NCBI GenBank assembly: GCA_020432165.1
Contig: JAGQGU010000003.1
Location: forward strand, 4,357 to 68,356
Source: Thermomicrobiales bacterium
GTDB taxonomy: Bacteria; Chloroflexota; Chloroflexia; Thermomicrobiales; UBA6265
Length of the DNA stretch: 64,000 bases
Direction of reading: 5' to 3'
Shown: positions 1 to 63,675 of the stretch, piece after piece
Layout of the letters: each line of letters begins with the position of its first letter
Position numbering within the stretch: the stretch's first letter is position 1
The notes under the pieces: generated by a model
Told to the model about the DNA's origin: nothing
What the model saw: only the letters and a program-made list of their open reading frames with translations
The model's database searches: none
Made by a program: the position numbers and the translations under genes

Positions 1-954
1 CGCGATCCCTCTGGCCAAAGCACGTCGTATCTCGATGGCAATAGTGTCGGCATCCGCGCAGTGATCACCGACATCAGCAGTGTTGGTTTCTTTGCTGCTG
101 GTCGCGTGGTGGTGGTGGAGAATCTCCTCGCGCGGCTTGGCAAGCAGGGCGCAAAGGATGGGGGAAATCCACCTGAATGGGCAAATCTCTTCGCGTCAGT
201 ACCGGATGCGAGCACGTTGGTTCTACTCGATCCGACGATTGCCGAGATGGGCGCACTCGCCAAAAAGGCCCTTCCCAAACACGCCATCGTCGAGCACAGC
301 AAACCACCGCGCGGTCCGCAACTTATCGCCTGGATTCAGGATGCTGCCAAGGCTGCCGGCGGCGACATCGACAAACAAGCCGCGCAACACCTGGCAATGC
401 AACTCTTTCCGCAAGGATGGGCATCCGAACCGCGCAATCCGATGTATGACCGTCCACCAGATATGGTCATGCTGGAGAACGAGATTCAGAAACTGGTGCT
501 GGCAGCTTATCCGGACAGAATCACAACGCAGCTCATATCAGAGATGAGCCCCAGGGAACAGGATGACAAGATCTTCCAGTTCCTTGATGCAGCAGCGGCT
601 GGCAATGTGGCTGATGCCCTGCGCGAGATGGATAAGCTGATCGCTAACGGCGAGGACCCTGCCAAGCTGCTGGCTCAACTCAGCACCAATCTGGAGCTAA
701 CCACACCGATTTCCGCCGCCGGGCGACGCGCCGGTGATGCGATCGCCAGCGATATCGGCGGCGTTGCGGCCAACAGGGTGAGTGCGCTTCAACGTGGACT
801 TCAAGGGATGAGCCCAGGCATTGCCCAGCGTCGATCTGGTGTCGCTGCAGAAGCTGATCGCAAGTTCAAGACAGGTCAACTCAAGGAACCACTGGACGCA
901 CTCTACGAGACAATTCTGCACATCGCCGAAATGCGCCACTCAGCCCGCCGATAA
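1..954 (+). CDS. holA: DNA polymerase III delta subunit (HolA), 5'-truncated by window edge
   Basis: Frame 1 is open from base 1, with no stop before the ORF-track start at 61. The C-terminal helical region resembles delta subunits (DKIFQFLDAAAAGNVADALREMDKLIANGEDPAKLLAQL). The holA/rpsT neighbourhood is the classic arrangement. Confidence 0.8.
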   Translation, partial: RDPSGQSTSYLDGNSVGIRAVITDISSVGFFAAGRVVVVENLLARLGKQGAKDGGNPPEWANLFASVPDASTLVLLDPTIAEMGALAKKALPKHAIVEHSKPPRGPQLIAWIQDAAKAAGGDIDKQAAQHLAMQLFPQGWASEPRNPMYDRPPDMVMLENEIQKLVLAAYPDRITTQLISEMSPREQDDKIFQFLDAAAAGNVADALREMDKLIANGEDPAKLLAQLSTNLELTTPISAAGRRAGDAIASDIGGVAANRVSALQRGLQGMSPGIAQRRSGVAAEADRKFKTGQLKEPLDALYETILHIAEMRHSARR

Positions 955-1441: not shown

Positions 1442-2800
1442 CTAGGAAACACTCTCCAGAGGAGAGACATAGGCGATATCGCCGCGACGCTCCTCGAAGT
1501 CAGCGCGAGCTGCTGCGCGAAGATCGGCATCGGTCATCAGATCGTAGGCCATGCGCGCCATCACCTTGGCAGCACCATCCACCGCCTTGCTCCCAATCGA
1601 CATGCCACCACATGCCGTCACCGGCCAGGTGTGCATACCGATACCCAGCGGCACGGAGGGATAATTGAACCAAACGGTGGGTGTACACCAGCTGACATCA
1701 CCAACATCGCTACTGCCGCCCATGGTGGAGGGTGGCGTGATTGGTTCAACGCTGGTTGCAAGCCCGGTATCCGGAATACCAAAGTTGCGCTGAATCTCGC
1801 GGGCAAAGTCTTGCTCGACGTCTGTCCATTGCGGCACACCAATCGCCTCAAGGTGCTTCTGGCAGTTCTCGACCAACGGCGTGTTCGCCATCATGTCGTA
1901 CATACCAAAGGTCACCTTGAAGTCGGCGCGGGTCTGCGTGCCCATCGCAGCGCCTTCGGCCAGCGATCGTGACCAGGTCGTTAGCGCATCTACACCAGCA
2001 CGATCGATATCGCGCAGGTACATGAAGAGGCGGGTGTAATCCGGCACGATATTCGGGGCACCGCCACCCGACTGAATCACGTAGTGCATACGCGCGGTGG
2101 TGGGGACATGCTCGCGCATGAGGTTGATGCCATGAGTAAAGAGTTCCAGTGCATCGAGCGCACTACGACCCTCCCATGGATTCGCACCGGCATGGGCAGT
2201 CTTGCCATGGAACTCGAGCACAATATGGTTAACCGCCGCAGAGCGGACATAGCCGGTGCTGGCCTTCGATCCTGAATGCCAGGCGATGCAAACATCGATA
2301 TCATCGAAGTAGCCATCGCGTGCCATGTAGACCTTGGCACCAGTCGTTTCCTCGGCAGCACAGCCATAGACACGCACCAGTCCGGGGAGACCTTCCATCT
2401 CCATCGTGAACTTGAGGGCAATGGCGGCACCTGTGCAGGCGGCACCCAACAGATTGTGGCCGCAGCCATGACCAGCGGATTTCCCGTTCGGTGCGGCAGC
2501 CTGATCGGCAGATGCCGAGTTACCGAGGTCGGGCAAGGCATCGTATTCCGGCAGGAAACCGATCCGCGGTCCATCGCTCCCCTGCTCCCATTCAGCGATG
2601 AACGCGTTTGGTCGACCACTTGTCTCCAGACTGGTGATCGTGAATCCGGCTGCCTCCAATTCGCGGATGTGTACCTTGGCCGATTCCGATTCCTCATTCG
2701 AAACCTCAGCCAGCATCCACACTTCCTTGTTGATGCTCTCCATCGCCTCGCCCGTGCGATCGACCGAGAGATCAATTGTTCCGTAATCCCGTACCGTCAT
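1442..2800 (-). CDS. M20 family amidohydrolase, AbgB-like (aminobenzoyl-glutamate hydrolase subunit B-like), copy 1
   Basis: 452 aa with M20 metal-site context (GHGCGHNLLG, EETTGAKV) and AbgB-like length and architecture. Confidence 0.8.
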   Translation of the reverse strand: MTVRDYGTIDLSVDRTGEAMESINKEVWMLAEVSNEESESAKVHIRELEAAGFTITSLETSGRPNAFIAEWEQGSDGPRIGFLPEYDALPDLGNSASADQAAAPNGKSAGHGCGHNLLGAACTGAAIALKFTMEMEGLPGLVRVYGCAAEETTGAKVYMARDGYFDDIDVCIAWHSGSKASTGYVRSAAVNHIVLEFHGKTAHAGANPWEGRSALDALELFTHGINLMREHVPTTARMHYVIQSGGGAPNIVPDYTRLFMYLRDIDRAGVDALTTWSRSLAEGAAMGTQTRADFKVTFGMYDMMANTPLVENCQKHLEAIGVPQWTDVEQDFAREIQRNFGIPDTGLATSVEPITPPSTMGGSSDVGDVSWCTPTVWFNYPSVPLGIGMHTWPVTACGGMSIGSKAVDGAAKVMARMAYDLMTDADLRAAARADFEERRGDIAYVSPLESVS

Positions 2801-2834: not shown

Positions 2835-4193
2835 TTACGACACGTTATCCAGCGGCGAGATGTACTTAACATCACCGCGACGTTCGATGAAATCCGCGCG
2901 AGCGGCAGCGCGCAACTCAGCATCCGTCATGAGGTCATAGCCCATACGCGCCATGATTTTGGCGGCGCCGTCAACAGCCTTGCTGCCAATGGACATACCG
3001 CCGCAGGCGGTGACCGGCCAGGTATGCATACTGACCCCTTGTGGCACCGATGGGTACCAGAACCATATCAAGGGAACGCACCAGCTGACATCACCGAGGT
3101 CGCTGCTACCACCCTGCACCGACGGCGGCGAGATCGGCCTGACGTCGGTGGCCATTCCCTCCTCGGGAACACCGAAGTTGCGTTGGCAGTCACGTGCGAA
3201 CGCCTGCTCTGCCTCCGTCCATTGGGGAGCACCAACCTCCATCATGTGTTTGTAGCAATTCTCGACCAGCGGAGTATTGTTGATCGTCTCGCTCATCCCG
3301 TAGGGCACGTGAAACTCGGCTCGAGTCTGCGTGCCCATCGCAGCACCCTCAGCCAACGCCCGCGCCCAGGTGGTCAACGCTTCGACACCTGCACGATCCT
3401 TGTCCCGGAGGTACATATACAGACGCGTATAGTCCGGCACAATATTCGGAGCGCTACCTCCAGCCTGAATCACATAGTGCATGCGGACGGAGGTCGGCAC
3501 ATGTTCGCGCATGAGGTTGATGCCATGCATGAAGAGTTCCAGTGCATCGAGCGCGCTACGGCCCTCCCATGGACTCCCGCCGGCATGGGCGGTTTTGCCA
3601 TGGAACTCGACCACCACATCACTCATGGCTGATGTGGAGACGTATCCAGTGCCCGCATACGTTTGTGGATGCCAGGCGATACAGACATCGATATCATCAA
3701 AGTAGCCATCGCGCACCATGTAGACCTTGGCACCCGAGGTCTCTTCAGCGGCGCATCCATACACTCGCACCAGGCCAGGAATGCCCTCCATCTCCATGGT
3801 GAACTTCAGAGCAATAGCGGCACCTGTGCAGGCGGCACCCAACAGATTGTGGCCACAGCCATGGCCGCTGGTTTTGCCATTAGGAGCAGCGACCTGCTCT
3901 CCCGATGCAGCGTTACCGAGATCCGGCAGGGCATCGTACTCCGGCAGGAAGCCGATGCGGGCTCCGCCTTCCCCTTGCTCCCATTCCGCGATGAAGGCTG
4001 TCGGGCGACCGCTGGTACCAACACTGGTGATCGTGAATCCGGCCGCTTCCAGTTCCCGCATATGGACTTTGGCCGATTCCGATTCCTCGTTGGAGATCTC
4101 GGCAAGCATCCAGACTTCCTTGTTGATGCTTTCCATCGCCTCGCCAGTACGATCGACGGACAGGTCTATGGTTGCGTAGTCCCGCGTTGTCAT
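2835..4193 (-). CDS. M20 family amidohydrolase, AbgB-like, copy 2 (tandem paralogue)
   Basis: 452 aa, collinear with the 1442-2800 product and identical at most positions by eye (DLSVDRTGEAMESINKEVWMLAE.SNEESESAKVH). Confidence 0.8.
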   Translation of the reverse strand: MTTRDYATIDLSVDRTGEAMESINKEVWMLAEISNEESESAKVHMRELEAAGFTITSVGTSGRPTAFIAEWEQGEGGARIGFLPEYDALPDLGNAASGEQVAAPNGKTSGHGCGHNLLGAACTGAAIALKFTMEMEGIPGLVRVYGCAAEETSGAKVYMVRDGYFDDIDVCIAWHPQTYAGTGYVSTSAMSDVVVEFHGKTAHAGGSPWEGRSALDALELFMHGINLMREHVPTSVRMHYVIQAGGSAPNIVPDYTRLYMYLRDKDRAGVEALTTWARALAEGAAMGTQTRAEFHVPYGMSETINNTPLVENCYKHMMEVGAPQWTEAEQAFARDCQRNFGVPEEGMATDVRPISPPSVQGGSSDLGDVSWCVPLIWFWYPSVPQGVSMHTWPVTACGGMSIGSKAVDGAAKIMARMGYDLMTDAELRAAARADFIERRGDVKYISPLDNVS

Positions 4194-4326: not shown

Positions 4327-5799
4327 ATGGGAGCTACCATGACCGATACAGCCACAATTCAGACAGAACAACTGATCATCGCGGGGCAACGCGTCAATGC
4401 GATCGATGGCGAGACATTCGATGTCATCAATCCTGCTACCGACCAGGTGATTGCCCGAGTCGCCAAGGCAGGCCTCCCCGATGTCGAGGCGGCCGTCGCT
4501 GCGGCCCGCAAAGCATTCGATGAAGGTCCGTGGCCGCGCATGGCACCGTATGAGCGCGGACGCATCATCCAGAAGATCGCAGATCGCATCCGGGAGCGCG
4601 CCGATGAGCTCGCCGCCGTGGAGAGTGCTAACACGGGCAAGCCTATGGCACGAGCCAAAGGCGAGATCCTCAGCGGTGCGGTCGTCTTCGATTACTACGC
4701 CGGGGCTGGTGACAAGTTCTTCGGCGAATCAATTCCCCTGGGCGACAAGGTGCTGGATGTCACGTTGCGCGAGCCGGTGGGTGTGGCAGCGCAAATCGTC
4801 CCCTGGAACTTCCCCTTCAGCATGGCGACCTGGAAAGTCGGTCCCGCATTGGCTGCTGGCTGCTGCGTCATCCTCAAACCTGCCAGCCTGACACCGCTAA
4901 CGGCGTTGCTGCTTGGGGAGATCTGCTACGAAGCCGGCGTACCCGAGGGCGTGGTCAATGTGCTACCGGGTCCTGGTGGACTCATTGGAGAGGCCCTCTC
5001 CGCACATCCGCTGGTCGACAAGGTGGCATTCACCGGTGAGACGACAACTGGAGCCGCCATCTTGAGAGCCGCCTCTGACACGATCAAGAAGGTCTCGCTG
5101 GAGTTGGGTGGCAAGAGCCCGAATATCGTCTTTGCGGATGCGGATTTGGCGAAGGCAGCCGCATCGGCGGTACCGGCTGGATTCGGCAACAGTGGTCAGA
5201 CCTGCACGGCACGCACACGCGTTTTCGTGAGCAATAGCGATCACGATAACTTCCTGCAGCAGCTGGTCGATCACACCGCGCGATATAGCGTTGGTGACCC
5301 CACCGCAGCTGGTGTGCAGATGGGTCCGCTTATCTCACAGGCGCAGAAAGATCGGGTCAATAACTACGTGCAGATCGGGAAGGATGAGGGAGCGGAGCTC
5401 GCTTACGGCGGGATGACACCCGCAGATCAGCCGGTGGGAGCATTCCTGCAGCCGACGATTTTCGGTGCGGTCAGCAACGATATGCGCATTGCCCGCGAGG
5501 AGATCTTTGGCCCGGTTATCTCTGTGATCCCGTTCAAGGATGAAGCGGATGTTATCCGGGAGGCCAACGCCAACGATTACGGTCTGGCTGGCTCGGTATG
5601 GACACGCGATATCGGACGTGCGCTCCGCGTGGCCAAGGGCTTGCGGACAGGCATGGTCGCGATCAACTCAAACGGTGGCGCAGGTGTGTTTGGACCGTTT
5701 GGCGGCTACAAGCACAGCGGCCTTGGACGAGAGCTGGGCATGCATGGCCTGGAACTCTACACCGAGGTCAAGAACATTTACATCGATCTGGAGGATTAG
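4327..5799 (+). CDS. NAD(P)-dependent aldehyde dehydrogenase
   Basis: 490 aa with ALDH motifs ([24 protein letters not shown]). The alternative ATG at 4339 has a better GGGAG Shine-Dalgarno. Confidence 0.9.
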
Positions 5800-5825
5800 T
5801 CGGACACCAGTAAGGCTCACACCAC

Positions 5826-5851
5826 GTAGGGGCGCATCTCGAAGCGAATGC
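5826..5851 (+). repeat. REP-like element (GTAG head plus hairpin)
   Basis: GTAGGGGC followed by GCATcTCG-AAG-CGAATGC hairpin, in the intergenic gap between convergent genes. Confidence 0.45.
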
Positions 5852-5879
5852 TGAGAGTATGTGCCCGAAATGAGCGCGC

Positions 5880-7085
5880 CTAAACCACAAATCCGGGCTC
5901 CTGGCGCTTCACCAGTCGCACCAGGGCCAGTAAACACACCGAAGCGGCGAGACTCAGGACGATACTGAGTACCAGTGCGGTGTTGGCGCCTTGCCGCTCC
6001 AGAATTCTCGCGAAGATCGGCGGCGCGGCTGCGAAGGAGAGATTCAACGGTAGCGCCAGTCTTGCCGATGCGCGCGCGTATGCTTGTGGTGGGAACATCG
6101 TCAATGGCAAAGTCGCGCGCACGATCGACATGAGACCGCCTGCCAATCCATAGAGCAGGACGAAAGTTGCCGCCACCACAACCGAACCCCCCAGATAGAG
6201 CAGGATGAACGAGAAGAGCATGGTGGAAGTCGAAGCGATTGCGGATCGCAACGGCGACCAATTGCCCAGCACATCAATCGACCGAGCGGCTATCGAGATC
6301 AGTCCGATCAGCGATGCCAGTGTCACCGCCTGACTATTTTCCAGCCCCTTTTGTGTCAAAAGCGGAATAAGCGTGAGTGAGAATCCCCAGGTGATGAAAC
6401 CATTGAGGGCGGTCACACCTGCAACCAGCATGAAGCGGATCGGATCCAGACGCTGTTGATCCGTTGATTTGGCATCATCAGTAATCTCCCGAGTACGCGG
6501 CGATTTTGCTGCGGCCACAGCTACCAGCGGCATATAGATCAGCAACATCGATACCGCTAAAAGCGCAGTAACGGTGCGCCAACCGGCAGCGCCATCGATA
6601 CGCGAGACAATTGGCCAGAGGATTGTGTTGGAGAGACCGCTTACAAGCGAAAGCGCACTGATCGCCTGACGGGCACGGTCATCGAAGACCTCCGCTAACG
6701 CGATCTGGGCAGCAGTCGAAAGAGATGCGGCTCCACCGATGCCGAAGAGCAGCCACACCGCAAGGAAGAGATAGACAGATTGAGCGAAAGTGATCGCCAG
6801 CAGTCCGACTGTCATCACGATCGCGCCGCCGAGCATCATCTTACGCGCACCAATGCGCTCGAAGAGTGGCGCTGTCCACCAGGAGACGATGGCGAGCATG
6901 GTCAGCATCACCGTCGGTCCGAGCAGAATCACATCCAGCGAGGCGTCGAATGTATTGGCGATGGAGGTGCCGATCACCCCCGTCAGATTGAACGTTGCAC
7001 CCCAGCCGATGATCTGACAGATGCCGATGGCAAGCACAGTAGGTGCCATTCTGCGGGCGGGTTGGGTTGTCGCCGTCATTGCCAC
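5880..7085 (-). CDS. MFS transporter
   Basis: 401 aa, about 12 hydrophobic segments, MFS-like loop composition. Confidence 0.8.
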   Translation of the reverse strand: MAMTATTQPARRMAPTVLAIGICQIIGWGATFNLTGVIGTSIANTFDASLDVILLGPTVMLTMLAIVSWWTAPLFERIGARKMMLGGAIVMTVGLLAITFAQSVYLFLAVWLLFGIGGAASLSTAAQIALAEVFDDRARQAISALSLVSGLSNTILWPIVSRIDGAAGWRTVTALLAVSMLLIYMPLVAVAAAKSPRTREITDDAKSTDQQRLDPIRFMLVAGVTALNGFITWGFSLTLIPLLTQKGLENSQAVTLASLIGLISIAARSIDVLGNWSPLRSAIASTSTMLFSFILLYLGGSVVVAATFVLLYGLAGGLMSIVRATLPLTMFPPQAYARASARLALPLNLSFAAAPPIFARILERQGANTALVLSIVLSLAASVCLLALVRLVKRQEPGFVV

Positions 7086-7688: not shown

Positions 7689-7761
7689 CAATATCCTTGA
7701 TTCTATGGGTTTTTCGGGGGTACCTACCGGGTTTCGAACCCGGAACCTCTTGTTCCACAGA
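7689..7761 (-). repeat. attL: 73-bp direct repeat containing the displaced 3' part of tRNA-His (anticodon loop to acceptor end)
   Basis: Matches 14451-14525 apart from one 2-nt indel and one substitution. The 45-bp core 7717-7761 is identical to 14481-14525. The fragment ends ...GGTACCCCC, so it encodes no CCA. Confidence 0.9.
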
Positions 7762-7861
7762 AAAGAGCTTAGGTGTTTCCCCGTGCTACCCCGTATCGAG
7801 ACGCGTTGATGAAAACCCCATATCCATAGGACTTCTTGAGATTCCGTGCTCCGAAATGCCG

Positions 7862-7908
7862 TATAATTCTGTGTAGTGGCGTGTCGTCCACACGCCACAC
7901 ACACGCCA
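7862..7908 (+). promoter_or_regulatory. Candidate int promoter -10 plus ACACGCCAC operator/arm-type sites
   Basis: TATAAT at 7862-7867. Perfect inverted repeat GTGGCGTGT-N5-ACACGCCAC at 7876-7898, plus an 8/9 direct copy at 7901-7908, directly upstream of the int ATG at 7920. Confidence 0.5.
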
Positions 7909-7919
7909 AGGGAGCTAGC

Positions 7920-9278
7920 ATGGCAGTCCAACCACGATACGCGTTTACGACGAACATTGAGACCGGCAAACGTGAGCCGGTATACGAAGTCGATAAATCT
8001 GGAGCAATCAAACTGGACAAGGACGGGAATCCGATACGAAAAGTCCTGAACTGGAAAGTAGAAGTGTACGATACCGACCCAGTGACCGGGAAGCAGAAGC
8101 GAAAGGTCATTGGAACCTTTCCAGCTAAGGGCGGGAAGGATGAAGCAAAGGCTGCTGACGTTGCTGCCAAGGCGGCAATTCGAAAAGGGTCCTTCCAGTG
8201 GGACGATCCGGAACCAGAGCCAGAGCCAGCACCGATTCCGACGGTGCAGCAAGCGTGCGAGCAATGGATAGCGGCAAAACGGGTTGAGACCAATAAATGG
8301 GGGCGTCCCCTCTCTGACAATCACATAGCAGGGTACGAATCCAGCCTGAAGATTCATGTTGGTCCAGCATTCGGAGACAAACTCGTCACCGAGGTGACCA
8401 CAAAAGGGATACAAGCCGTTGTTCAGGACTGGCTCACTGCGGTGGAAGGCGAGAGGAAGGCAAAGCACGCCCAAACGGTACGAAGGGCGATGATTGTGCT
8501 CCGTGGTGCGCTCGAAATGCAATTGATTGATGACGATGGCATCGGGTTCCTCAGTCGCAATCCTGCCGCAGATAGAAAGCTGATACTACCGAAAGTCGCC
8601 AAACAGAAGCAAGTTGTGAAGCCACTAGACGAAAAGCAAATGGATAAGTTCCTAGAGGAAGCTGAGTCCCATCCGTGGTTTGCCGCGTGGTTGCTGGCGG
8701 AAGTTGACGGTCTACGCCGTGCTGAGATTCTTGGAGGGCAATGGACTGACACACGTGGGGTAGATGATCCTGATGCACCGATCATATGGAGTGTCGGGCA
8801 AACATGCGTCGCGGATCAGCGCAATGGAGGCCGTCCGAAAATCCAGCCAAACCCCAAAACCGAAGGGTCTCGAAGGGAAATCCGTCTGAGCGCCATGTCA
8901 TCGCAGGCGTTGCGACGCCACCACGACAAGCAAGCGTTTCAACGCAAGTCCGCTGGTGCCGAATGGATAGACAATGGCCTGATATTCTGTAATGAGGTTG
9001 GTGAACCAATACGTCCGGATTCGTTTAGCGTTCAGACCAAGAAGATGCTGGATAGCCTGGGATTCGGCAATTTGGGGCCACACAAGCTAAGGCACCACGC
9101 AGCAGGGCGAATGCTACGGAATGGCGTGCCTATCGCGCTTGCAGCGGAGAAGCTGGGTCACTCTGACGTGTCTCTGACCTACGCAACCTATGGAAATCTG
9201 GACGAAAGCTCACAGGAACCAGTGAACTCAGCTATTGATCGCGTGCTCGATAAAGTTGGGACCAGGCATTCAGGTTAG
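7920..9278 (+). CDS. int: Tyrosine-type site-specific integrase
   Basis: C-terminal catalytic region HKLRHHAAGRML...LGHSDVSLTYATYGNL (H-x-x-R ... Y). N-terminal arm-type and SAM-like regions. ATG 7920 follows AAGGGAG; the track ORF start at 7836 is probably too long. Confidence 0.9.
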   Translation: MAVQPRYAFTTNIETGKREPVYEVDKSGAIKLDKDGNPIRKVLNWKVEVYDTDPVTGKQKRKVIGTFPAKGGKDEAKAADVAAKAAIRKGSFQWDDPEPEPEPAPIPTVQQACEQWIAAKRVETNKWGRPLSDNHIAGYESSLKIHVGPAFGDKLVTEVTTKGIQAVVQDWLTAVEGERKAKHAQTVRRAMIVLRGALEMQLIDDDGIGFLSRNPAADRKLILPKVAKQKQVVKPLDEKQMDKFLEEAESHPWFAAWLLAEVDGLRRAEILGGQWTDTRGVDDPDAPIIWSVGQTCVADQRNGGRPKIQPNPKTEGSRREIRLSAMSSQALRRHHDKQAFQRKSAGAEWIDNGLIFCNEVGEPIRPDSFSVQTKKMLDSLGFGNLGPHKLRHHAAGRMLRNGVPIALAAEKLGHSDVSLTYATYGNLDESSQEPVNSAIDRVLDKVGTRHSG

Positions 9279-9531: not shown

Positions 9532-9563
9532 ATGCACGCTCATTCGTGTATTGGAGACGAACG

Positions 9564-9782
9564 ATGAACAGCACTCCAGAACTGATGAACGCTGAAGAGT
9601 TCCGAGTCCGACTTGGCATCGGTCGATCTCTGTTTTACGAGCAGGCGCGTACCGGAGGTCTACCAGTCCCGACACTGCGGATCGGCAGACGAATGTTTTT
9701 CAGCCGTCCGGCATTCGAGCGCGTGCTGGCCGGAGATATCGACCGCGTTCCGGGGTCACCAGAAGCGGACTGTAGCAACTAG
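9564..9782 (+). CDS. xis: Excisionase-family / MerR-like HTH DNA-binding protein
   Basis: MNSTPELMNAEEFRVRLGIGRSLFYEQARTGGLPVPTLRIGRRMFFSRPAFERVL matches the excisionase-type HTH pattern. GGAGA Shine-Dalgarno before ATG 9564. Confidence 0.75.
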   Translation: MNSTPELMNAEEFRVRLGIGRSLFYEQARTGGLPVPTLRIGRRMFFSRPAFERVLAGDIDRVPGSPEADCSN

Positions 9783-11674: not shown

Positions 11675-12166
11675 TTATTCTCCAACTTCGTGCCAACCGG
11701 CAGGTACGATGAATGGCTCGTTCGCAACGAACGCCTCCACTATCTGGTCCGCTATATCGCGGTCGGTGGCTGTCCCCCACATCACATAGCCATTGCCGGT
11801 GCAGAAGAAAACCTGGATACCTACGTTCATCGGCCCCGAAAAGATGAACATCCGGCATCCCGCGGCGGTCTCTGTCTCGCCGATCAGCGGATACCCCACC
11901 TGCACAGCAAGATCGTCTGCGTCCACACTGGCGATGATCTCGGCATTGGTGCCGTCATCGGCCGCTATCTCAAAATTGACATAGTCCCAAGACGTCTCAC
12001 CTTCAATCTTCCAGGCTCCTGGTTGAATGCCCGTCTCCACAACTTCGGTTGCCAATATCTTTGAGCCGCTTCGCGAGGTGCGGGTGACCTCATCGCCATT
12101 TCCACCGAACACAGCCAGCATCACTGCGAGTACCAGAGCGCCAATGATTTGTCCCAAGTCTTCCAT
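11675..12166 (-). CDS. Hypothetical N-terminally membrane-anchored protein
   Basis: 163 aa with a single N-terminal hydrophobic helix (IIGALVLAVMLAVFGG). GAGGTGA Shine-Dalgarno upstream of ATG 12166. No family recognised. Confidence 0.6.
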   Translation of the reverse strand: MEDLGQIIGALVLAVMLAVFGGNGDEVTRTSRSGSKILATEVVETGIQPGAWKIEGETSWDYVNFEIAADDGTNAEIIASVDADDLAVQVGYPLIGETETAAGCRMFIFSGPMNVGIQVFFCTGNGYVMWGTATDRDIADQIVEAFVANEPFIVPAGWHEVGE

Positions 12167-12225
12167 GTCTCACCTCACGAACAATGAACATGCCTCGCGG
12201 CTGTCTTTATCTGCCGTTCCCATAT

Positions 12226-12248
12226 CTTAATGGAATTCCTCTATTAAG
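12226..12248. promoter_or_regulatory. Candidate operator in the divergent 163-aa/XRE intergenic region
   Basis: CTTAAT-GGAATTCC-TCT-ATTAAG inverted repeat. Confidence 0.3.
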
Positions 12249-12279
12249 GGAAATCCCACGTTCACTCCAGACTTCGCAT

Positions 12280-12573
12280 ATGAATGGGGCTCGTGACGAT
12301 GGAACCGGTCGAATACGGGAAAATGCTTTCGGGAATCTCGTATCCCGTCAGGATAGACAGAGGCTAGGTGCTCTTCTGCGCTCACTTCGTGAAGATGCTG
12401 GTCTCAAGCAAGGCGAGCTTTCCGAGAGAATCGGGATCGCACAACGCACTTTGTCGCGTATTGAGTACGGCGACCGTGAGGTCACCGTGCTGGAGTTGCT
12501 GGTTATCGCACGGGGACTCAATGTTTCTGCTGAATCGATAGTCACCCAGCTTAAGACCATGATCGATAGATGA
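12280..12573 (+). CDS. XRE-family HTH transcriptional regulator
   Basis: LRSLREDAGLKQGELSERIGIAQRTLSRIEYGDREVTVLELLVIARGL is a classic XRE HTH. The track start at 12184 would leave only 17 bp to the divergent gene, so the in-frame ATG at 12280 is preferred. The start remains uncertain. Confidence 0.7.
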   Translation: MNGARDDGTGRIRENAFGNLVSRQDRQRLGALLRSLREDAGLKQGELSERIGIAQRTLSRIEYGDREVTVLELLVIARGLNVSAESIVTQLKTMIDR

Positions 12574-12575
12574 GA

Positions 12576-12932
12576 TCAATACATGCGCGGATGCTCACCG
12601 CGCATACGCTGACCAGCGACCAGTTCTAGACGTCCGTCCGCAGTTATCCACACTTGGAGGATGGCGGTACCACGAGGGGTCAGATCGCCACGTATCGAGC
12701 CTATACAGAGCCGGTGGTTCTGGGTAGCCGATTCCTCAGCCAAACGCGCGACAGAGTGCGATGACGTACCCACAGATGCATACGGATACGCTCGCCGAAT
12801 CTCAGCACTTCCAGCTGCTATGAGAGCCGGTGCATGGTGCTTTATCCATGCGATGTATTGTTTGGCACGCTCGATTCCGATCTTTCCCGGTGGCGGTGGC
12901 CAATCTGGTAAGCGTTCCGTGGTTGCAAGCAT
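12576..12932 (-). CDS. Hypothetical protein, ERLPDWPP-motif family, paralogue A (translationally coupled to SRAP)
   Basis: 118 aa. Its start ATG overlaps the SRAP stop (TAATG at 12930-12934). Alignable along its length with the 13797-14216 product. Confidence 0.7.
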   Translation of the reverse strand: MLATTERLPDWPPPPGKIGIERAKQYIAWIKHHAPALIAAGSAEIRRAYPYASVGTSSHSVARLAEESATQNHRLCIGSIRGDLTPRGTAILQVWITADGRLELVAGQRMRGEHPRMY

Positions 12933-13654
12933 TAGGATATCTCCAATAGTGAGGCTTGCCGAACTTCAGGGACGGGTTTGATTAGCTCAGCATCATTGTT
13001 ACGGACATCGTTAACACGGCCACTGACGGGCCAAAATTCCAACTTGTCTGTTGGATATGGACTCAATAACGGGCGAATAAGCATCAGGTCACGAACGCTC
13101 CGGGAAAGCCACATGTCTACATTCTGCGGTTGAATGATGACCGGCATCCTGTCGTGAATATGGGCGATGCTCTCAGCAGGTGTGGTGGTGATCAGGCTGT
13201 ATGAGGCCTCGATTTCCCCGGACTGATTGAGCCAGGCATCGTAGATACCCGCAAGCAGAGAGATAGGGTCATCGATTAGCCGGATGTAGTATGGAACCCT
13301 TCTTGAGCCTTGCTTTTGCCATTCGTAATACCCAGATGTTGGAACTAAGCAGCGACGGGATGCGAGTAGACCGCGGAACGTTGGTAGGTCTTCGATGGTT
13401 TCAGCACGCGCGTTACTTGGCTTGTGGTGATGCGGTTTGCTCCAGGATCGCGACAATCCCCAACGCATAAGGCGTGGTTCGATAAGTCCGTCTCGATTCT
13501 CCACTAACACGAATTGGCTCATACCGGGTGCATGGTTGAAACTGGTTGTCATTGTGGCCATGATGCGTTCAAAATTCGCGACAAGTCTCGATGTTTGAGG
13601 CATCTCCTTTGCAACCTCTAGATCGTCATCGAATCGTCGTAGCCGCCCACACAT
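12932..13654 (-). CDS. SOS-response-associated peptidase (SRAP / YedK / HMCES family)
   Basis: Begins MCGR (catalytic Cys2). Conserved NARAET, GYYEW and HDRMPVI motifs are all present. The track ORF to 14146 is an upstream read-through of the same frame. Confidence 0.85.
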   Translation of the reverse strand: MCGRLRRFDDDLEVAKEMPQTSRLVANFERIMATMTTSFNHAPGMSQFVLVENRDGLIEPRLMRWGLSRSWSKPHHHKPSNARAETIEDLPTFRGLLASRRCLVPTSGYYEWQKQGSRRVPYYIRLIDDPISLLAGIYDAWLNQSGEIEASYSLITTTPAESIAHIHDRMPVIIQPQNVDMWLSRSVRDLMLIRPLLSPYPTDKLEFWPVSGRVNDVRNNDAELIKPVPEVRQASLLEIS

Positions 13655-13694
13655 CGCCATTCTCCATTCCAGAAGCCGAGCATCTAGTACTTGC

Positions 13695-13724
13695 ACTATA
13701 CAGAACATATGTTCTATTATGCAA
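13695..13724 (-). promoter_or_regulatory. SRAP promoter with embedded LexA-type SOS box
   Basis: Minus strand: TTGCAT (13724-13719), 18-nt spacer, TATAGT (13700-13695). The spacer contains the perfect palindrome AGAACATATGTTCT (13702-13715), which is GAAC-N4-GTTC. Confidence 0.6.
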
Positions 13725-13796
13725 TCAGAGGCCCCGAGTGTAAAAGCGCCTGAGGCCCTTCTATCGATTCGATGGTGGGGATAGAGTGGTGCTGAT

Positions 13797-14216
13797 ATGA
13801 AAGAGCGATTGCCTGACTGGCCGCCTGTCGATTTGGAGCTTATCGGTGAAGCGCGGGCGCGAGCATATGTTGATTGGATGCGCGCGCACATCGCACCCGT
13901 GATTGATCGCGCCAAGACTGATCTACGTCGCCAGTATGGTGATGATGTCGTCCTGACCACTGAGTCGATGAGTGTCGATACGCTGGCCGCGACTGTGTAC
14001 AACCGTATGGGGCCGCATTTCATCATCGGAAGCGTAAAGGCCGATATGGGCAAAGCGCGACCGGCAGAAATCTTTGTTGTGATCCAACCAGACGGTACCA
14101 TCGACCTCATGCCTGTCTGGCTCCCATTCACAGAAGCGAACCTCATGGATGATCTGCTGGCTAGCCTGGCCGAGCAGCAGGCCCATTCAGCAGACCAGGA
14201 TCAAAGCAATGAATGA
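13797..14216 (+). CDS. Hypothetical protein, ERLPDWPP-motif family, paralogue B (acidic C-terminal tail)
   Basis: 139 aa. Shares ERLPDWPP, W..H..P.I....RR.Y, IGS and DG..L blocks with the 12576-12932 product. Divergent from SRAP across the LexA-box promoter. Confidence 0.7.
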   Translation: MKERLPDWPPVDLELIGEARARAYVDWMRAHIAPVIDRAKTDLRRQYGDDVVLTTESMSVDTLAATVYNRMGPHFIIGSVKADMGKARPAEIFVVIQPDGTIDLMPVWLPFTEANLMDDLLASLAEQQAHSADQDQSNE

Positions 14217-14392
14217 AGGCTACCCATCCACCAGTCTCACGACGATTGGATTCCCATCTGTGACTGGTAAGTGATCTACTGCGCGAGATGTCCTGAGTTG
14301 CAGGAGGATGGCTGAGAAGGTGTTTTCAGGGTGGTTGGTGAGGTGTTTATGCATCCAAATCTCGACCTATATCTGACTGTGTCGAAATTCTC

Positions 14393-14412
14393 ACACGCCA
14401 CTCACACGCCAC
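14393..14412 (+). promoter_or_regulatory. Two direct ACACGCCAC copies near attR (candidate integrase arm-type sites)
   Basis: ACACGCCAC at 14393-14401 and 14404-14412 (11-bp phasing), the same 9-mer as at 7876-7908. Confidence 0.45.
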
Positions 14413-14423
14413 AGACCACACAA

Positions 14424-14449
14424 CGCAAAAGCCGCTAACTGCTAGCGGC
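14424..14449 (-). terminator. Element-supplied terminator downstream of tRNA-His
   Basis: Minus strand: GCCGCTA-GCAGT-TAGCGGC hairpin followed by TTTTGCG. Confidence 0.6.
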
Positions 14450-14450
14450 T

Positions 14451-14525
14451 CAATATCCTTGATTCTATAAGGGTTTTTCTGGGGTACCTACCGGGTTTCG
14501 AACCCGGAACCTCTTGTTCCACAGA
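14451..14525 (-). repeat. attR: 75-bp direct repeat overlapping the 3' part of the intact tRNA-His
   Basis: Partner of 7689-7761. It extends about 29 bp beyond the tRNA 3' end. Confidence 0.9.
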
Positions 14526-14555
14526 CAAGCGCTCTGCCGTTGAGCTATAGGTACC
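14480..14555 (-). tRNA. tRNA-His (anticodon GUG) with encoded G-1 and CCA
   Basis: Hand-folded cloverleaf: G-1, GTACCTA/TAGGTAC acceptor, GCTC/GAGC D stem, CTTGT-CTGTGGA-ACAAG anticodon arm, CCGGG-TTCGAAA-CCCGG T arm, discriminator C, CCA. 76 nt. Confidence 0.92.
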
Positions 14556-62433: not shown

Positions 62434-63675
62434 ATGCGATATCGCTGCTCATTCTGCAATAAGGGTCAGGAGGAAGTTCGCCGCCTGATCGCCGGACCAA
62501 ACGAGGTGTACATTTGCGACGAGTGTGTACAGCTTTGCAAGGAGATCATCAACGAAGAAGAGCCAAAGGAACCAACTTTTGAGCTCGCCGAAGCGAATGT
62601 GCCGACACCCAAGGCACTCTACGATCATCTGAACAACTACATCATCGGGCAGGATCGCGCCAAGAAGATCCTGTCGGTGGCGGTCTATAACCATTACAAG
62701 CGCATCAATGCCAATCTCGACGACGATATCGAGCTGGCCAAGAGTAATGTGTTGCTGGTTGGCCCTACCGGTTCGGGCAAGACTTACCTGGCACAGACTC
62801 TGGCCAAGGTGCTCAATGTGCCCTTCAGCATCGCCGATGCCACCGCTCTCACCGAGGCTGGCTATGTGGGTGAGGATGTCGAGAATATCCTGCTCCGGCT
62901 TATCCAGAATGCGGGCGATGTCGAGCGCGCCGAACGTGGCATCATCTATATCGATGAGATCGACAAGATCAGCCGCAAATCAGACAATCCCAGCATCACG
63001 CGCGATGTTTCCGGCGAAGGTGTGCAGCAGGCCTTGCTCAAGATCATTGAGGGTACGGTGGCAAATGTGCCGCCGCAGGCCGGTCGCAAGCATCCGCACC
63101 AGGAATACATCCAGATCGATACGAAGAACATCCTCTTCATTTGCGGTGGTGCCTTTGAGGGCCTGGAAGAGGTTGTCGAAAAGCGGCTCAACAAGCAATC
63201 GAGCATGGGCTTCGGCAATGTCCAGACCAAGGCCGACAAGGTCGAGAATCCGCTGGCGCATCTGACTCATGACGACCTGATGAAGTACGGTCTGATCCCC
63301 GAGTTTGTCGGGCGTCTGCCCGTTTCGGTCGCGCTCGATCACCTCACCGAAGAAGAATTGATGCGCATCCTCACCGAGCCAAAGAACGCTGTGGTGAAGC
63401 AGTATCAGAAGTTCTTTGATCTGGATGATGTGGAACTCGAGTTCACGGATGACGCCCTGCGCGCCGTGGCGAAGCAGGCCCAGGAGCGCAAGACCGGTGC
63501 CCGCGGACTCCGCACCGCCATCGAAGATGTGCTGCTGGATGTGATGTACGAGATTCCGAGCATGGAGAATGTCCGCAAGTGCGTGGTGAATGGTGATGTT
63601 ATCACCAACCACTCCCGCCCGCTCCTCATGACCGTGAACGATCAGCCGATCGAGTACGAACCACAGACCGCGTAA
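62434..63675 (+). CDS. clpX: ATP-dependent Clp protease ATP-binding subunit ClpX
   Basis: Zinc ribbon CSFCNK...CDEC, Walker [18 protein letters not shown]. Confidence 0.97.

Follow-up and report, generated by a model that had tools for sequence, protein, structure and literature searches.

What are two small, mutually related proteins of no recognised family doing on either side of an abasic-site processing gene at the end of a mobile element? The question is raised by a three-gene locus in a 64,000-nucleotide stretch of DNA from a Thermomicrobiales bacterium (Chloroflexota; contig JAGQGU010000003.1, positions 4,357 to 68,356), which we call the window. The middle gene encodes a SRAP/YedK-type protein. 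Its stop codon overlaps the start of a gene for a protein of 118 amino acids (aa) as TAATG, and a gene for a 139-aa paralogue of the latter is transcribed divergently from the same control region of 142 base pairs (bp). A first-pass annotation, made from the letters alone, had described this arrangement, had placed it on a mobile element behind a LexA-type box and had suggested a damage-triggered accessory system in which the small proteins, here called LPDWPP proteins, might be partners of SRAP. The gene structure, the element and the box hold on closer analysis; the general partnership does not. What stays constant is the association of the LPDWPP gene with the regulatory region of a mobile element, in many cases with a LexA box in front; two kinds of gene can take the upstream place, and SRAP is one of them. 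Our preferred reading, to which we give a probability of roughly 0.35, is that the trio is an SOS-controlled effector locus of temperate elements with non-cleavable XRE repressors, built on an uncharacterised protein family whose members would be antirepressor-like, with SRAP as an accessory first gene.

Single-protein, word-indexed searches recovered almost nothing for the two small proteins. An exhaustive profile search with HMMER, over 1.84 billion representatives (clusters at 50% identity), recovered 60 proteins at E <= 1e-3, and a profile search of a set of 5.8 billion clusters recovered 94 family members, all of them unnamed or "hypothetical", none with a Pfam domain and with organism labels only from Chloroflexota or Thermomicrobiales. 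The matches in genome collections are metagenome-assembled genomes (MAGs) of Chloroflexia and Thermomicrobiales. The family is real but rare, uncharacterised and apparently restricted to the Chloroflexota, and all the contexts seen are mobile elements or contigs of phage-like character, with integrases, XRE or HTH_17 regulators and terminases nearby.

About 13 independent contexts of the family could be tallied, the P0010 contigs being judged from gene maps only. The LPDWPP gene is linked to SRAP in two of these lineages, that of the window and that of the metagenomic contig L002/L003. The latter carries the same mirrored triad, with a divergent 126-aa acidic copy (P0007, the counterpart of the 139-aa protein), a SRAP gene overlapping the gene for a 117-aa basic copy (P0006, the counterpart of the 118-aa protein, in the same position) and a convergent XRE gene; its triad proteins are 48-60% identical to those of the window. 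In five contexts (L004, L007, L008, L012-14 and L015) the LPDWPP gene follows, instead of SRAP, the gene for a zinc-ribbon protein with the motif CxxCxGxG...CxxC, which always lies directly 5' of the LPDWPP gene, mostly overlapping it. Neither partner is present in the other contexts, about six, where the LPDWPP genes mostly stand alone, several of them divergent from an HTH_17 protein of ~175 aa; in L017 the gene lies in an operon of small unrelated open reading frames (ORFs). Since SRAP and zinc-ribbon genes replace one another and SRAP-less loci exist, the LPDWPP family is not a SRAP-specific partner. The predicted linkage with SRAP therefore stands within the SRAP subclade and fails family-wide.

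The same gene order allows a different and rather unlikely explanation, that the LPDWPP protein regulates the protein encoded upstream, be it SRAP or zinc ribbon, at lesions in single-stranded DNA (ssDNA), or is part of it as a stoichiometric subunit. It could, for example, guide the upstream protein to stalled forks or govern the release of SRAP-DNA crosslinks, and the module would then be damage-tolerance cargo that aids survival of the host and hence of the element. Should the small proteins turn out to regulate SRAP, the YedK/HMCES family would have its first dedicated partners in bacteria. The stop/start overlap with the upstream gene in every operonic case and the retention of the triad with SRAP in two diverged elements are consistent with this explanation, as are the N-terminal CxxC...CxxC extension of the family member P0011 and the uncharacterised zinc-ribbon proteins described in SRAP neighbourhoods (PMC3765255). 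However, SRAP and the zinc-ribbon proteins are unrelated and yet are followed by the same family, some six members have no such partner, and no family member accompanies SRAP in cultured phages such as SPbeta, where yoqW is followed by a ligase-like gene. In E. coli and in humans, moreover, SRAP works without a partner.

What recurs with the LPDWPP family, and not with SRAP, is the LexA box. The predicted box of the window, AGAACATATGTTCT, is a perfect 14-bp palindrome of the form GAAC-N4-GTTC and the sole intergenic sequence of this form in the window. The other occurrence, at 63433, lies inside a coding region and is hence put down to chance; the 413-aa ORF that holds it is presumably ClpX-like, as read from its translation without a family-library test. 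The chance of finding the 8-base core in a 150-bp region is ~0.002. Fernandez de Henestrosa et al. reportedly found in 2002 that this LexA motif is used in green non-sulfur bacteria. In Gram-positive bacteria LexA recognises this same motif (PMC3323433).

The identical 14-mer occurs in both zinc-ribbon loci that have a visible promoter, downstream of a TTGAC(A/T) -35 element; in L007 it lies between a divergent integrase and the zinc-ribbon/LPDWPP operon of an integrative element, and in L012-14 beside terminase genes on phage-like contigs. The intergenic region of L002 is recognisably homologous to that of the window and carries the version AGAACATAAGTTCT. A second element (L001 plus L020) carries the SRAP/118/139 cassette at 94-98% identity to the window (L001 1-452; window 12582-13033 and 13655-14450), and here, on L020, the promoter core is replaced and the box reads AGCACGAATGTTCT, with one core mismatch. 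In the window the -10 element of the candidate SRAP promoter adjoins the box, and a candidate promoter for the 139-aa gene, read by eye and under the threshold of the promoter scanner, runs across it. The locus thus combines a motif overlapping the core promoter with a site conserved in related loci, as members of a LexA regulon do, and the SOS wiring claimed in the first-pass annotation is borne out by the recurrence of the box and the divergent promoter layout in the L002 triad.

The exact promoter string AGAACATATGTTCTAGTCT also matches two viral contigs, neither encoding an LPDWPP or zinc-ribbon relative; these matches were judged to be chance, the one examined (L018) falling within a long ORF that looks structural, in a phage of low GC content. 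The control region further contains conserved GAGGCCC direct repeats and the palindrome ATCGATTCGAT. The repeats and the ATCGAnTCGAT palindrome, in the leader of the 139-aa gene, are common to triads whose proteins are only ~50% identical (L020, L002), and the palindrome forms a small hairpin just 5' of the ribosome-binding region. These conserved elements may be a second operator. A structured leader RNA 5' of the 139-aa gene was considered and dropped: the small hairpin is conserved, but the folding z-scores are not significant.

The XRE regulators of the window, L002, L004, L007 and L008 have a helix-turn-helix (HTH) domain only, with no Peptidase_S24 domain, and SOS induction of such elements would therefore need an intermediary. 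Here, as expected for an antirepressor, a small gene with an SOS box sits on an element with a repressor that has no domain for autocleavage. We infer LexA binding, damage induction and any antirepressor activity in the following scheme. In the undamaged cell one LexA dimer on the box would block two overlapping divergent promoters. On DNA damage, RecA-stimulated cleavage of LexA would free both transcripts, the leftward one for SRAP and the 118-aa protein and the rightward one for the 139-aa protein. SRAP would be the accessory first gene, exchangeable with a zinc-ribbon protein in sister elements, and the LPDWPP protein the constant part, an effector that couples the SOS response to the life cycle of the element, most likely by inactivating an XRE-type repressor without a self-cleavage domain. 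The two paralogues could have different targets or form a basic/acidic heteromer. In keeping with this scheme, the upstream gene is swapped and yet the stop/start overlap is retained, and both paralogue lineages are kept in two diverged triads under purifying selection. Among the roles that the first-pass annotation had put forward, sensing for element induction fits this context best, and that of a regulator or adaptor of SRAP is weakened.

Several observations weigh against the antirepressor-like effector. The 118-aa protein is 98% identical between the window and L001 whereas the adjacent XRE regulators are only 64% identical, and this lack of co-variation weakens the reading, since the members of a strictly cognate pair should change together. 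Neither a recognisable upstream partner nor a LexA box accompanies about six of the family members, and no box was found in L005, L009, L010, L016 or L017 where upstream sequence is visible. The small proteins show no sequence homology to known antirepressors (Tum, GfoA/GftA, AntC and Sar/YopT) and in fold match none in the PDB, YopT (2DLB) and DinI included, and the host is uncultured. Finally, the translational coupling suggests a stoichiometric complex with the upstream product and not with a repressor. Another view, which we regard as improbable, is that the LPDWPP protein is the output half of a new two-part damage sensor of Chloroflexota mobile elements, co-translated with a reader of ssDNA lesions that is either SRAP, which traps abasic sites, or the zinc-ribbon protein. 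It would be freed or activated only when the reader engages damaged DNA and would then switch the repressor off. If true, SRAP would be a signalling sensor for element induction, as has been speculated (PMC3765255), by way of a new fold. The acidic paralogue would in that case be a built-in antagonist or timer of the basic one.

To our knowledge, it is only for Proteobacteria and Firmicutes that SOS induction via small antirepressor-like proteins is understood in detail, and the locus is a candidate for an equivalent SOS switch in Chloroflexota mobile elements, drawn from a family without a detectable relative or fold neighbour. The Gifsy prophages have a LexA-controlled operon of a dinI homologue, a small antirepressor gene (gfoA/gftA) and irsA, and their repressors are not cleaved (PMC3121763); SPbeta and phi3T have the LexA-controlled small antirepressors Sar/YopT (bioRxiv 10.1101/2025.11.27.690993). 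In Gifsy, in coliphage 186 with its Tum protein and in SPbeta/phi3T with Sar, as here, an SOS box lies over the promoter of a small operon of a temperate element whose main repressor does not cleave itself. Phage antirepressors are small, non-enzymatic and fast-evolving proteins, as is the LPDWPP protein, and the Gifsy effector follows an accessory dinI just as the LPDWPP gene follows a SRAP or zinc-ribbon gene. The antirepressors of Gifsy, 186 and SPbeta, however, have no sequence or fold similarity to LPDWPP proteins, for which antirepressor activity is only proposed. Unlike phage antirepressor loci, the element described here has a bidirectional promoter flanked by two divergent paralogues whose charges are opposite, and some members of the family have no SOS box.

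The occurrence of SRAP on temperate phages was noted in 2013, along with a possible role in sensing damage for induction (PMC3765255), and the locus provides a testable setting for the long-suggested link between abasic-site sensing by phage-borne SRAP and prophage decisions. The exchange of SRAP for a zinc-ribbon protein before the same family and behind the same operator amounts to a natural comparative experiment. The family has a narrow taxonomic range and uncultured hosts, and the function given to it here is inferred.

In YedK and HMCES a thiazolidine crosslink through Cys2 shields abasic sites in ssDNA. The SRAP protein of the window is intact, as had been claimed: its match to Pfam SRAP (PF02586) covers profile positions 1-214 of 214, it matches PHROG 1599 (E 1.4e-48) and the YedK and HMCES structures in the PDB (E 1e-20 to 1e-21), and the motifs MCGR, NARAET, GYYEW and HDRMPVI are found at residues 1, 81, 108 and 167, with the active-site residues Cys2, Asn81, Glu111 and His167 all in place. 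Since the motifs are intact, and judging from motifs alone, the protein presumably protects abasic sites in ssDNA in the manner of its homologues. It is a full-length member of the SRAP/YedK/HMCES family, like prophage copies such as SPbeta YoqW. The SRAP neighbourhoods that have been described (UmuCD, ImuA-ImuB-DnaE2, DinB, Ku/ligase and RecD-like helicase; PMC3765255) do not include the LPDWPP family.

The zinc-ribbon proteins, small and acidic, end in C-x2-C-x-G-x-G-x3-D-x-D-G-N-x-R-x-C-x2-C and form a second uncharacterised family. They have no Pfam match, the only similarity being a weak one to DnaJ_CXXCXGXG (E 0.012), and no homologue was found in the window. Scans of IMG/VR with two LPDWPP family alignments and with SRAP found no locus, the zinc-ribbon alignment being too variable for such scanning, and tblastn of the 118-aa protein, P0023 and a zinc-ribbon protein against 50,697 cultured phage genomes gave no match. 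Next to stand-alone LPDWPP genes, L009 (436-966) and L016 (3-464) encode a conserved protein of 155-176 aa that has an HTH_17/MerR-like domain at its N-terminus and a tail resembling a coiled coil; between this divergent gene and the LPDWPP gene there is no LexA box in either. In a Chloroflexia MAG a fragment of an LPDWPP gene coding for ~60 aa, with no intact ORF, lies ~500 bp from a tRNA-Leu gene (L006 2547-2726), and it may be the remnant of a decayed element.

Family members are ~105-130 aa long and 20-40% identical to one another, with the N-terminal motif (L)P(D)WPP...IG.ERAR..(V/I).W. Near-invariance is confined to P, W, G and A residues and there are no conserved catalytic ones, and for this reason the LPDWPP protein is taken to be a binding protein rather than an enzyme. 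An AlphaFold2 (AF2) model of the 118-aa protein, built with a 31-sequence alignment (pLDDT 91.5, pTM 0.82), has an N-terminal LPDWPP arm and a long helix (residues 20-48) packed on a four-stranded antiparallel sheet; in our reading the protein is a non-enzymatic alpha+beta binder. The annotation's remark that the small proteins belong to no recognised family was confirmed by every library consulted. Pfam, NCBIfam and PHROGs gave nothing significant, the best being one chance-level PHROG match (E 0.043); PADLOC gave no match to a defence model at E <= 1 for the trio proteins or the zinc-ribbon partners; a sequence-profile search of the PDB gave only noise (best an apolipoprotein, E 0.23); and Foldseek found no significant neighbour when both AF2 models were compared with the PDB and the better one with BFVD (best E 0.34-1.7).

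Their small size and non-enzymatic character, under the control of an SOS box, are also what would be expected if the small proteins bound RecA filaments or LexA, as DinI, PsiB and GIL01 gp7 do, and tuned the amplitude or duration of the SOS response to the advantage of the element, a role that we consider improbable. DinI/PsiB-type modulators on mobile elements are likewise small and SOS-linked, and they possess a counterpart of the acidic helix at the C-terminus of the 139-aa copy, which recalls the DNA-mimic helix of DinI (PMC3121763). The predicted LPDWPP topology nevertheless differs from theirs, no fold similarity to DinI or to any PDB entry was found with Foldseek, the acidic tail is missing in most members, and an identity of 20-40% among members would not be expected of proteins that bind RecA or LexA, both of them highly conserved.

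The two paralogues of the window are 36% identical over 106 residues, and they differ in charge. The 118-aa copy is basic (pI 9.9, net charge +5) and the 139-aa copy acidic (pI 4.6, net charge -10); of the two, only the latter has an acidic C-terminal helix in the AF2 models, in line with the tail that had been noted in the divergent copy alone. The split is kept in both triads, the SRAP-coupled copies having +5 (pI 9.9 and 9.7) and the divergent copies -10 and -9 (pI 4.6 and 4.5). Most other LPDWPP members are mildly acidic, and their zinc-ribbon partners are acidic. A comparison with the 94-98% identical copy of a second sample puts dN/dS at 0 over the N-terminus of SRAP, at 0.12 in the 118-aa gene and at 0.30 in the 139-aa gene, and all three genes are therefore real and constrained by purifying selection. 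A recent tandem duplication was rejected on the basis of a quick neighbour-joining tree of low resolution, in which the two copies fall in separate clades of the family and the 118-type adjoins a zinc-ribbon-linked member.

The striking basic/acidic split leaves some probability for a heteromer or an antagonist pair. A related idea is that of a toxin-antitoxin, abortive-infection or anti-defence pair in which the paralogues neutralise each other until damage or infection upsets the balance. The opposite net charges in both triads and the place of the genes, as cargo at one end of the element, suit such a pair, and toxin-antitoxin modules under LexA control are known. Most family members, however, are single-copy without a paralogue, none of the proteins has a PADLOC match, and the separate divergent transcripts under one operator offer no obvious differential control, so that we hold this to be very unlikely.

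The trio lies at the attR end of an island of 6.8 kb in the 3' end of a tRNA-His gene, bracketed by direct repeats of 81-83 bp, which together with a tyrosine integrase gene and a lower GC content (52-55%, against 57-59% in the flanks) upholds its description as a mobile element. The attL repeat holds a copy of the tRNA-His 3' part, displaced from the gene, and ~29 bp past that part. The gene order is integrase, HTH_17, Prim-Pol, 163-aa protein, XRE regulator and then the trio (Table 1). The second element, with the nearly identical cassette, is larger and has another backbone, with a Terminase_6N-like gene, another integrase and a different tRNA alongside; the DNA similarity between window and L001 (95%) breaks off precisely where the 118-aa gene has its 3' end.

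Table 1. Features of the island in the window, and partner or family genes on related contigs (coordinates of the respective contig).
Feature	Location	Strand	Basis or remark
attL direct repeat	7689..7769	.	repeat search, 94-100% identical to 14451-14533
Tyrosine integrase	7836..9278	+	Pfam Phage_integrase E 4e-13, also Phage_int_M
Small HTH_17 (AlpA/excisionase-like) protein, 78 aa, tentative	9546..9782	+	Pfam HTH_17 E 9e-4, under gathering score
Prim-Pol replication protein, 456 aa	9841..11211	+	Pfam Prim-Pol E 2.8e-14
163-aa protein, hydrophobic N-terminus	11675..12166	-	open reading frame list
XRE-type HTH regulator, candidate element repressor	12184..12573	+	Pfam HTH_3 E 2e-13 only
118-aa LPDWPP protein	12576..12932	-	family HMM E 6e-37
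SRAP/YedK-type abasic-site processing protein, 240 aa	12932..13654	-	Pfam SRAP E 1.1e-56
Divergent control region, 142 bp	13655..13796	.	between SRAP and 139-aa gene
Candidate promoter of 139-aa gene, TTGCAC-18-TATTAT	13691-13720	+	read by eye
Predicted LexA box	13702-13715		GAAC-N4-GTTC palindrome
Candidate SRAP promoter, TTTACA-17-CATAAT	13744-13716	-	promoter scanner
GAGGCCC direct repeats	13728-13734 and 13752-13758		conserved
Palindrome in control region	13763-13773		
139-aa LPDWPP protein, last gene before attR	13797..14216	+	BLASTP vs 118-aa copy, E 4e-15
attR direct repeat, overlaps 3' part of intact tRNA-His	14451..14533	.	repeat search
tRNA-His (GTG), integration target	14480..14554	-	ARAGORN; Rfam tRNA 67 bits
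L002 LPDWPP gene, basic, SRAP-coupled	1544-1897		
L002 LPDWPP gene, acidic, divergent	319-699		
L007 zinc-ribbon gene	3611-3958		
L012 zinc-ribbon gene	5732-6013		
L008 zinc-ribbon gene	2-253		
L015 zinc-ribbon gene	27-428		
L004 zinc-ribbon gene	7-240		

In the excised circle (14216-14533 joined to 7770-7836) the 139-aa gene would lie ~380 bp upstream of the integrase gene and in the same direction. No terminator-like site was detected between 14216 and 14600, and an SOS-driven read-through from the 139-aa gene into int across attP is conceivable. A role of the small proteins as a recombination directionality factor was set aside, most family members being acidic or neutral and the element already having an HTH_17 gene. 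The true start of the XRE gene, which is convergent with the 118-aa gene, is probably near 12280. For the 163-aa protein there was no significant family match, with none in Pfam or PADLOC and only chance-level ones in NCBIfam (E 0.31) and PHROGs (E 0.16-0.22).

Exact-sequence look-up shows the Prim-Pol protein to be identical to GenBank MCA9832674.1, from a Thermomicrobiales MAG, and the 139-aa protein is MCA9832678.1, a "hypothetical protein" also from this MAG. The exact 240-aa SRAP sequence was found only in Logan and ENA, its 90% cluster being represented in this MAG by a 242-aa variant, MCA9832677.1. The 118-aa gene seems to be unannotated in the GenBank MAG, since its exact sequence turns up only in Logan and ENA assemblies, its neighbours MCA9832674, 677 and 678 being in GenBank. 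In the chromosomal flank, two tandem paralogous genes for 452-aa M20-family peptidases lie on the minus strand at 1442-2800 and 2835-4193, and a 300-nucleotide stretch of their DNA is 71% identical.

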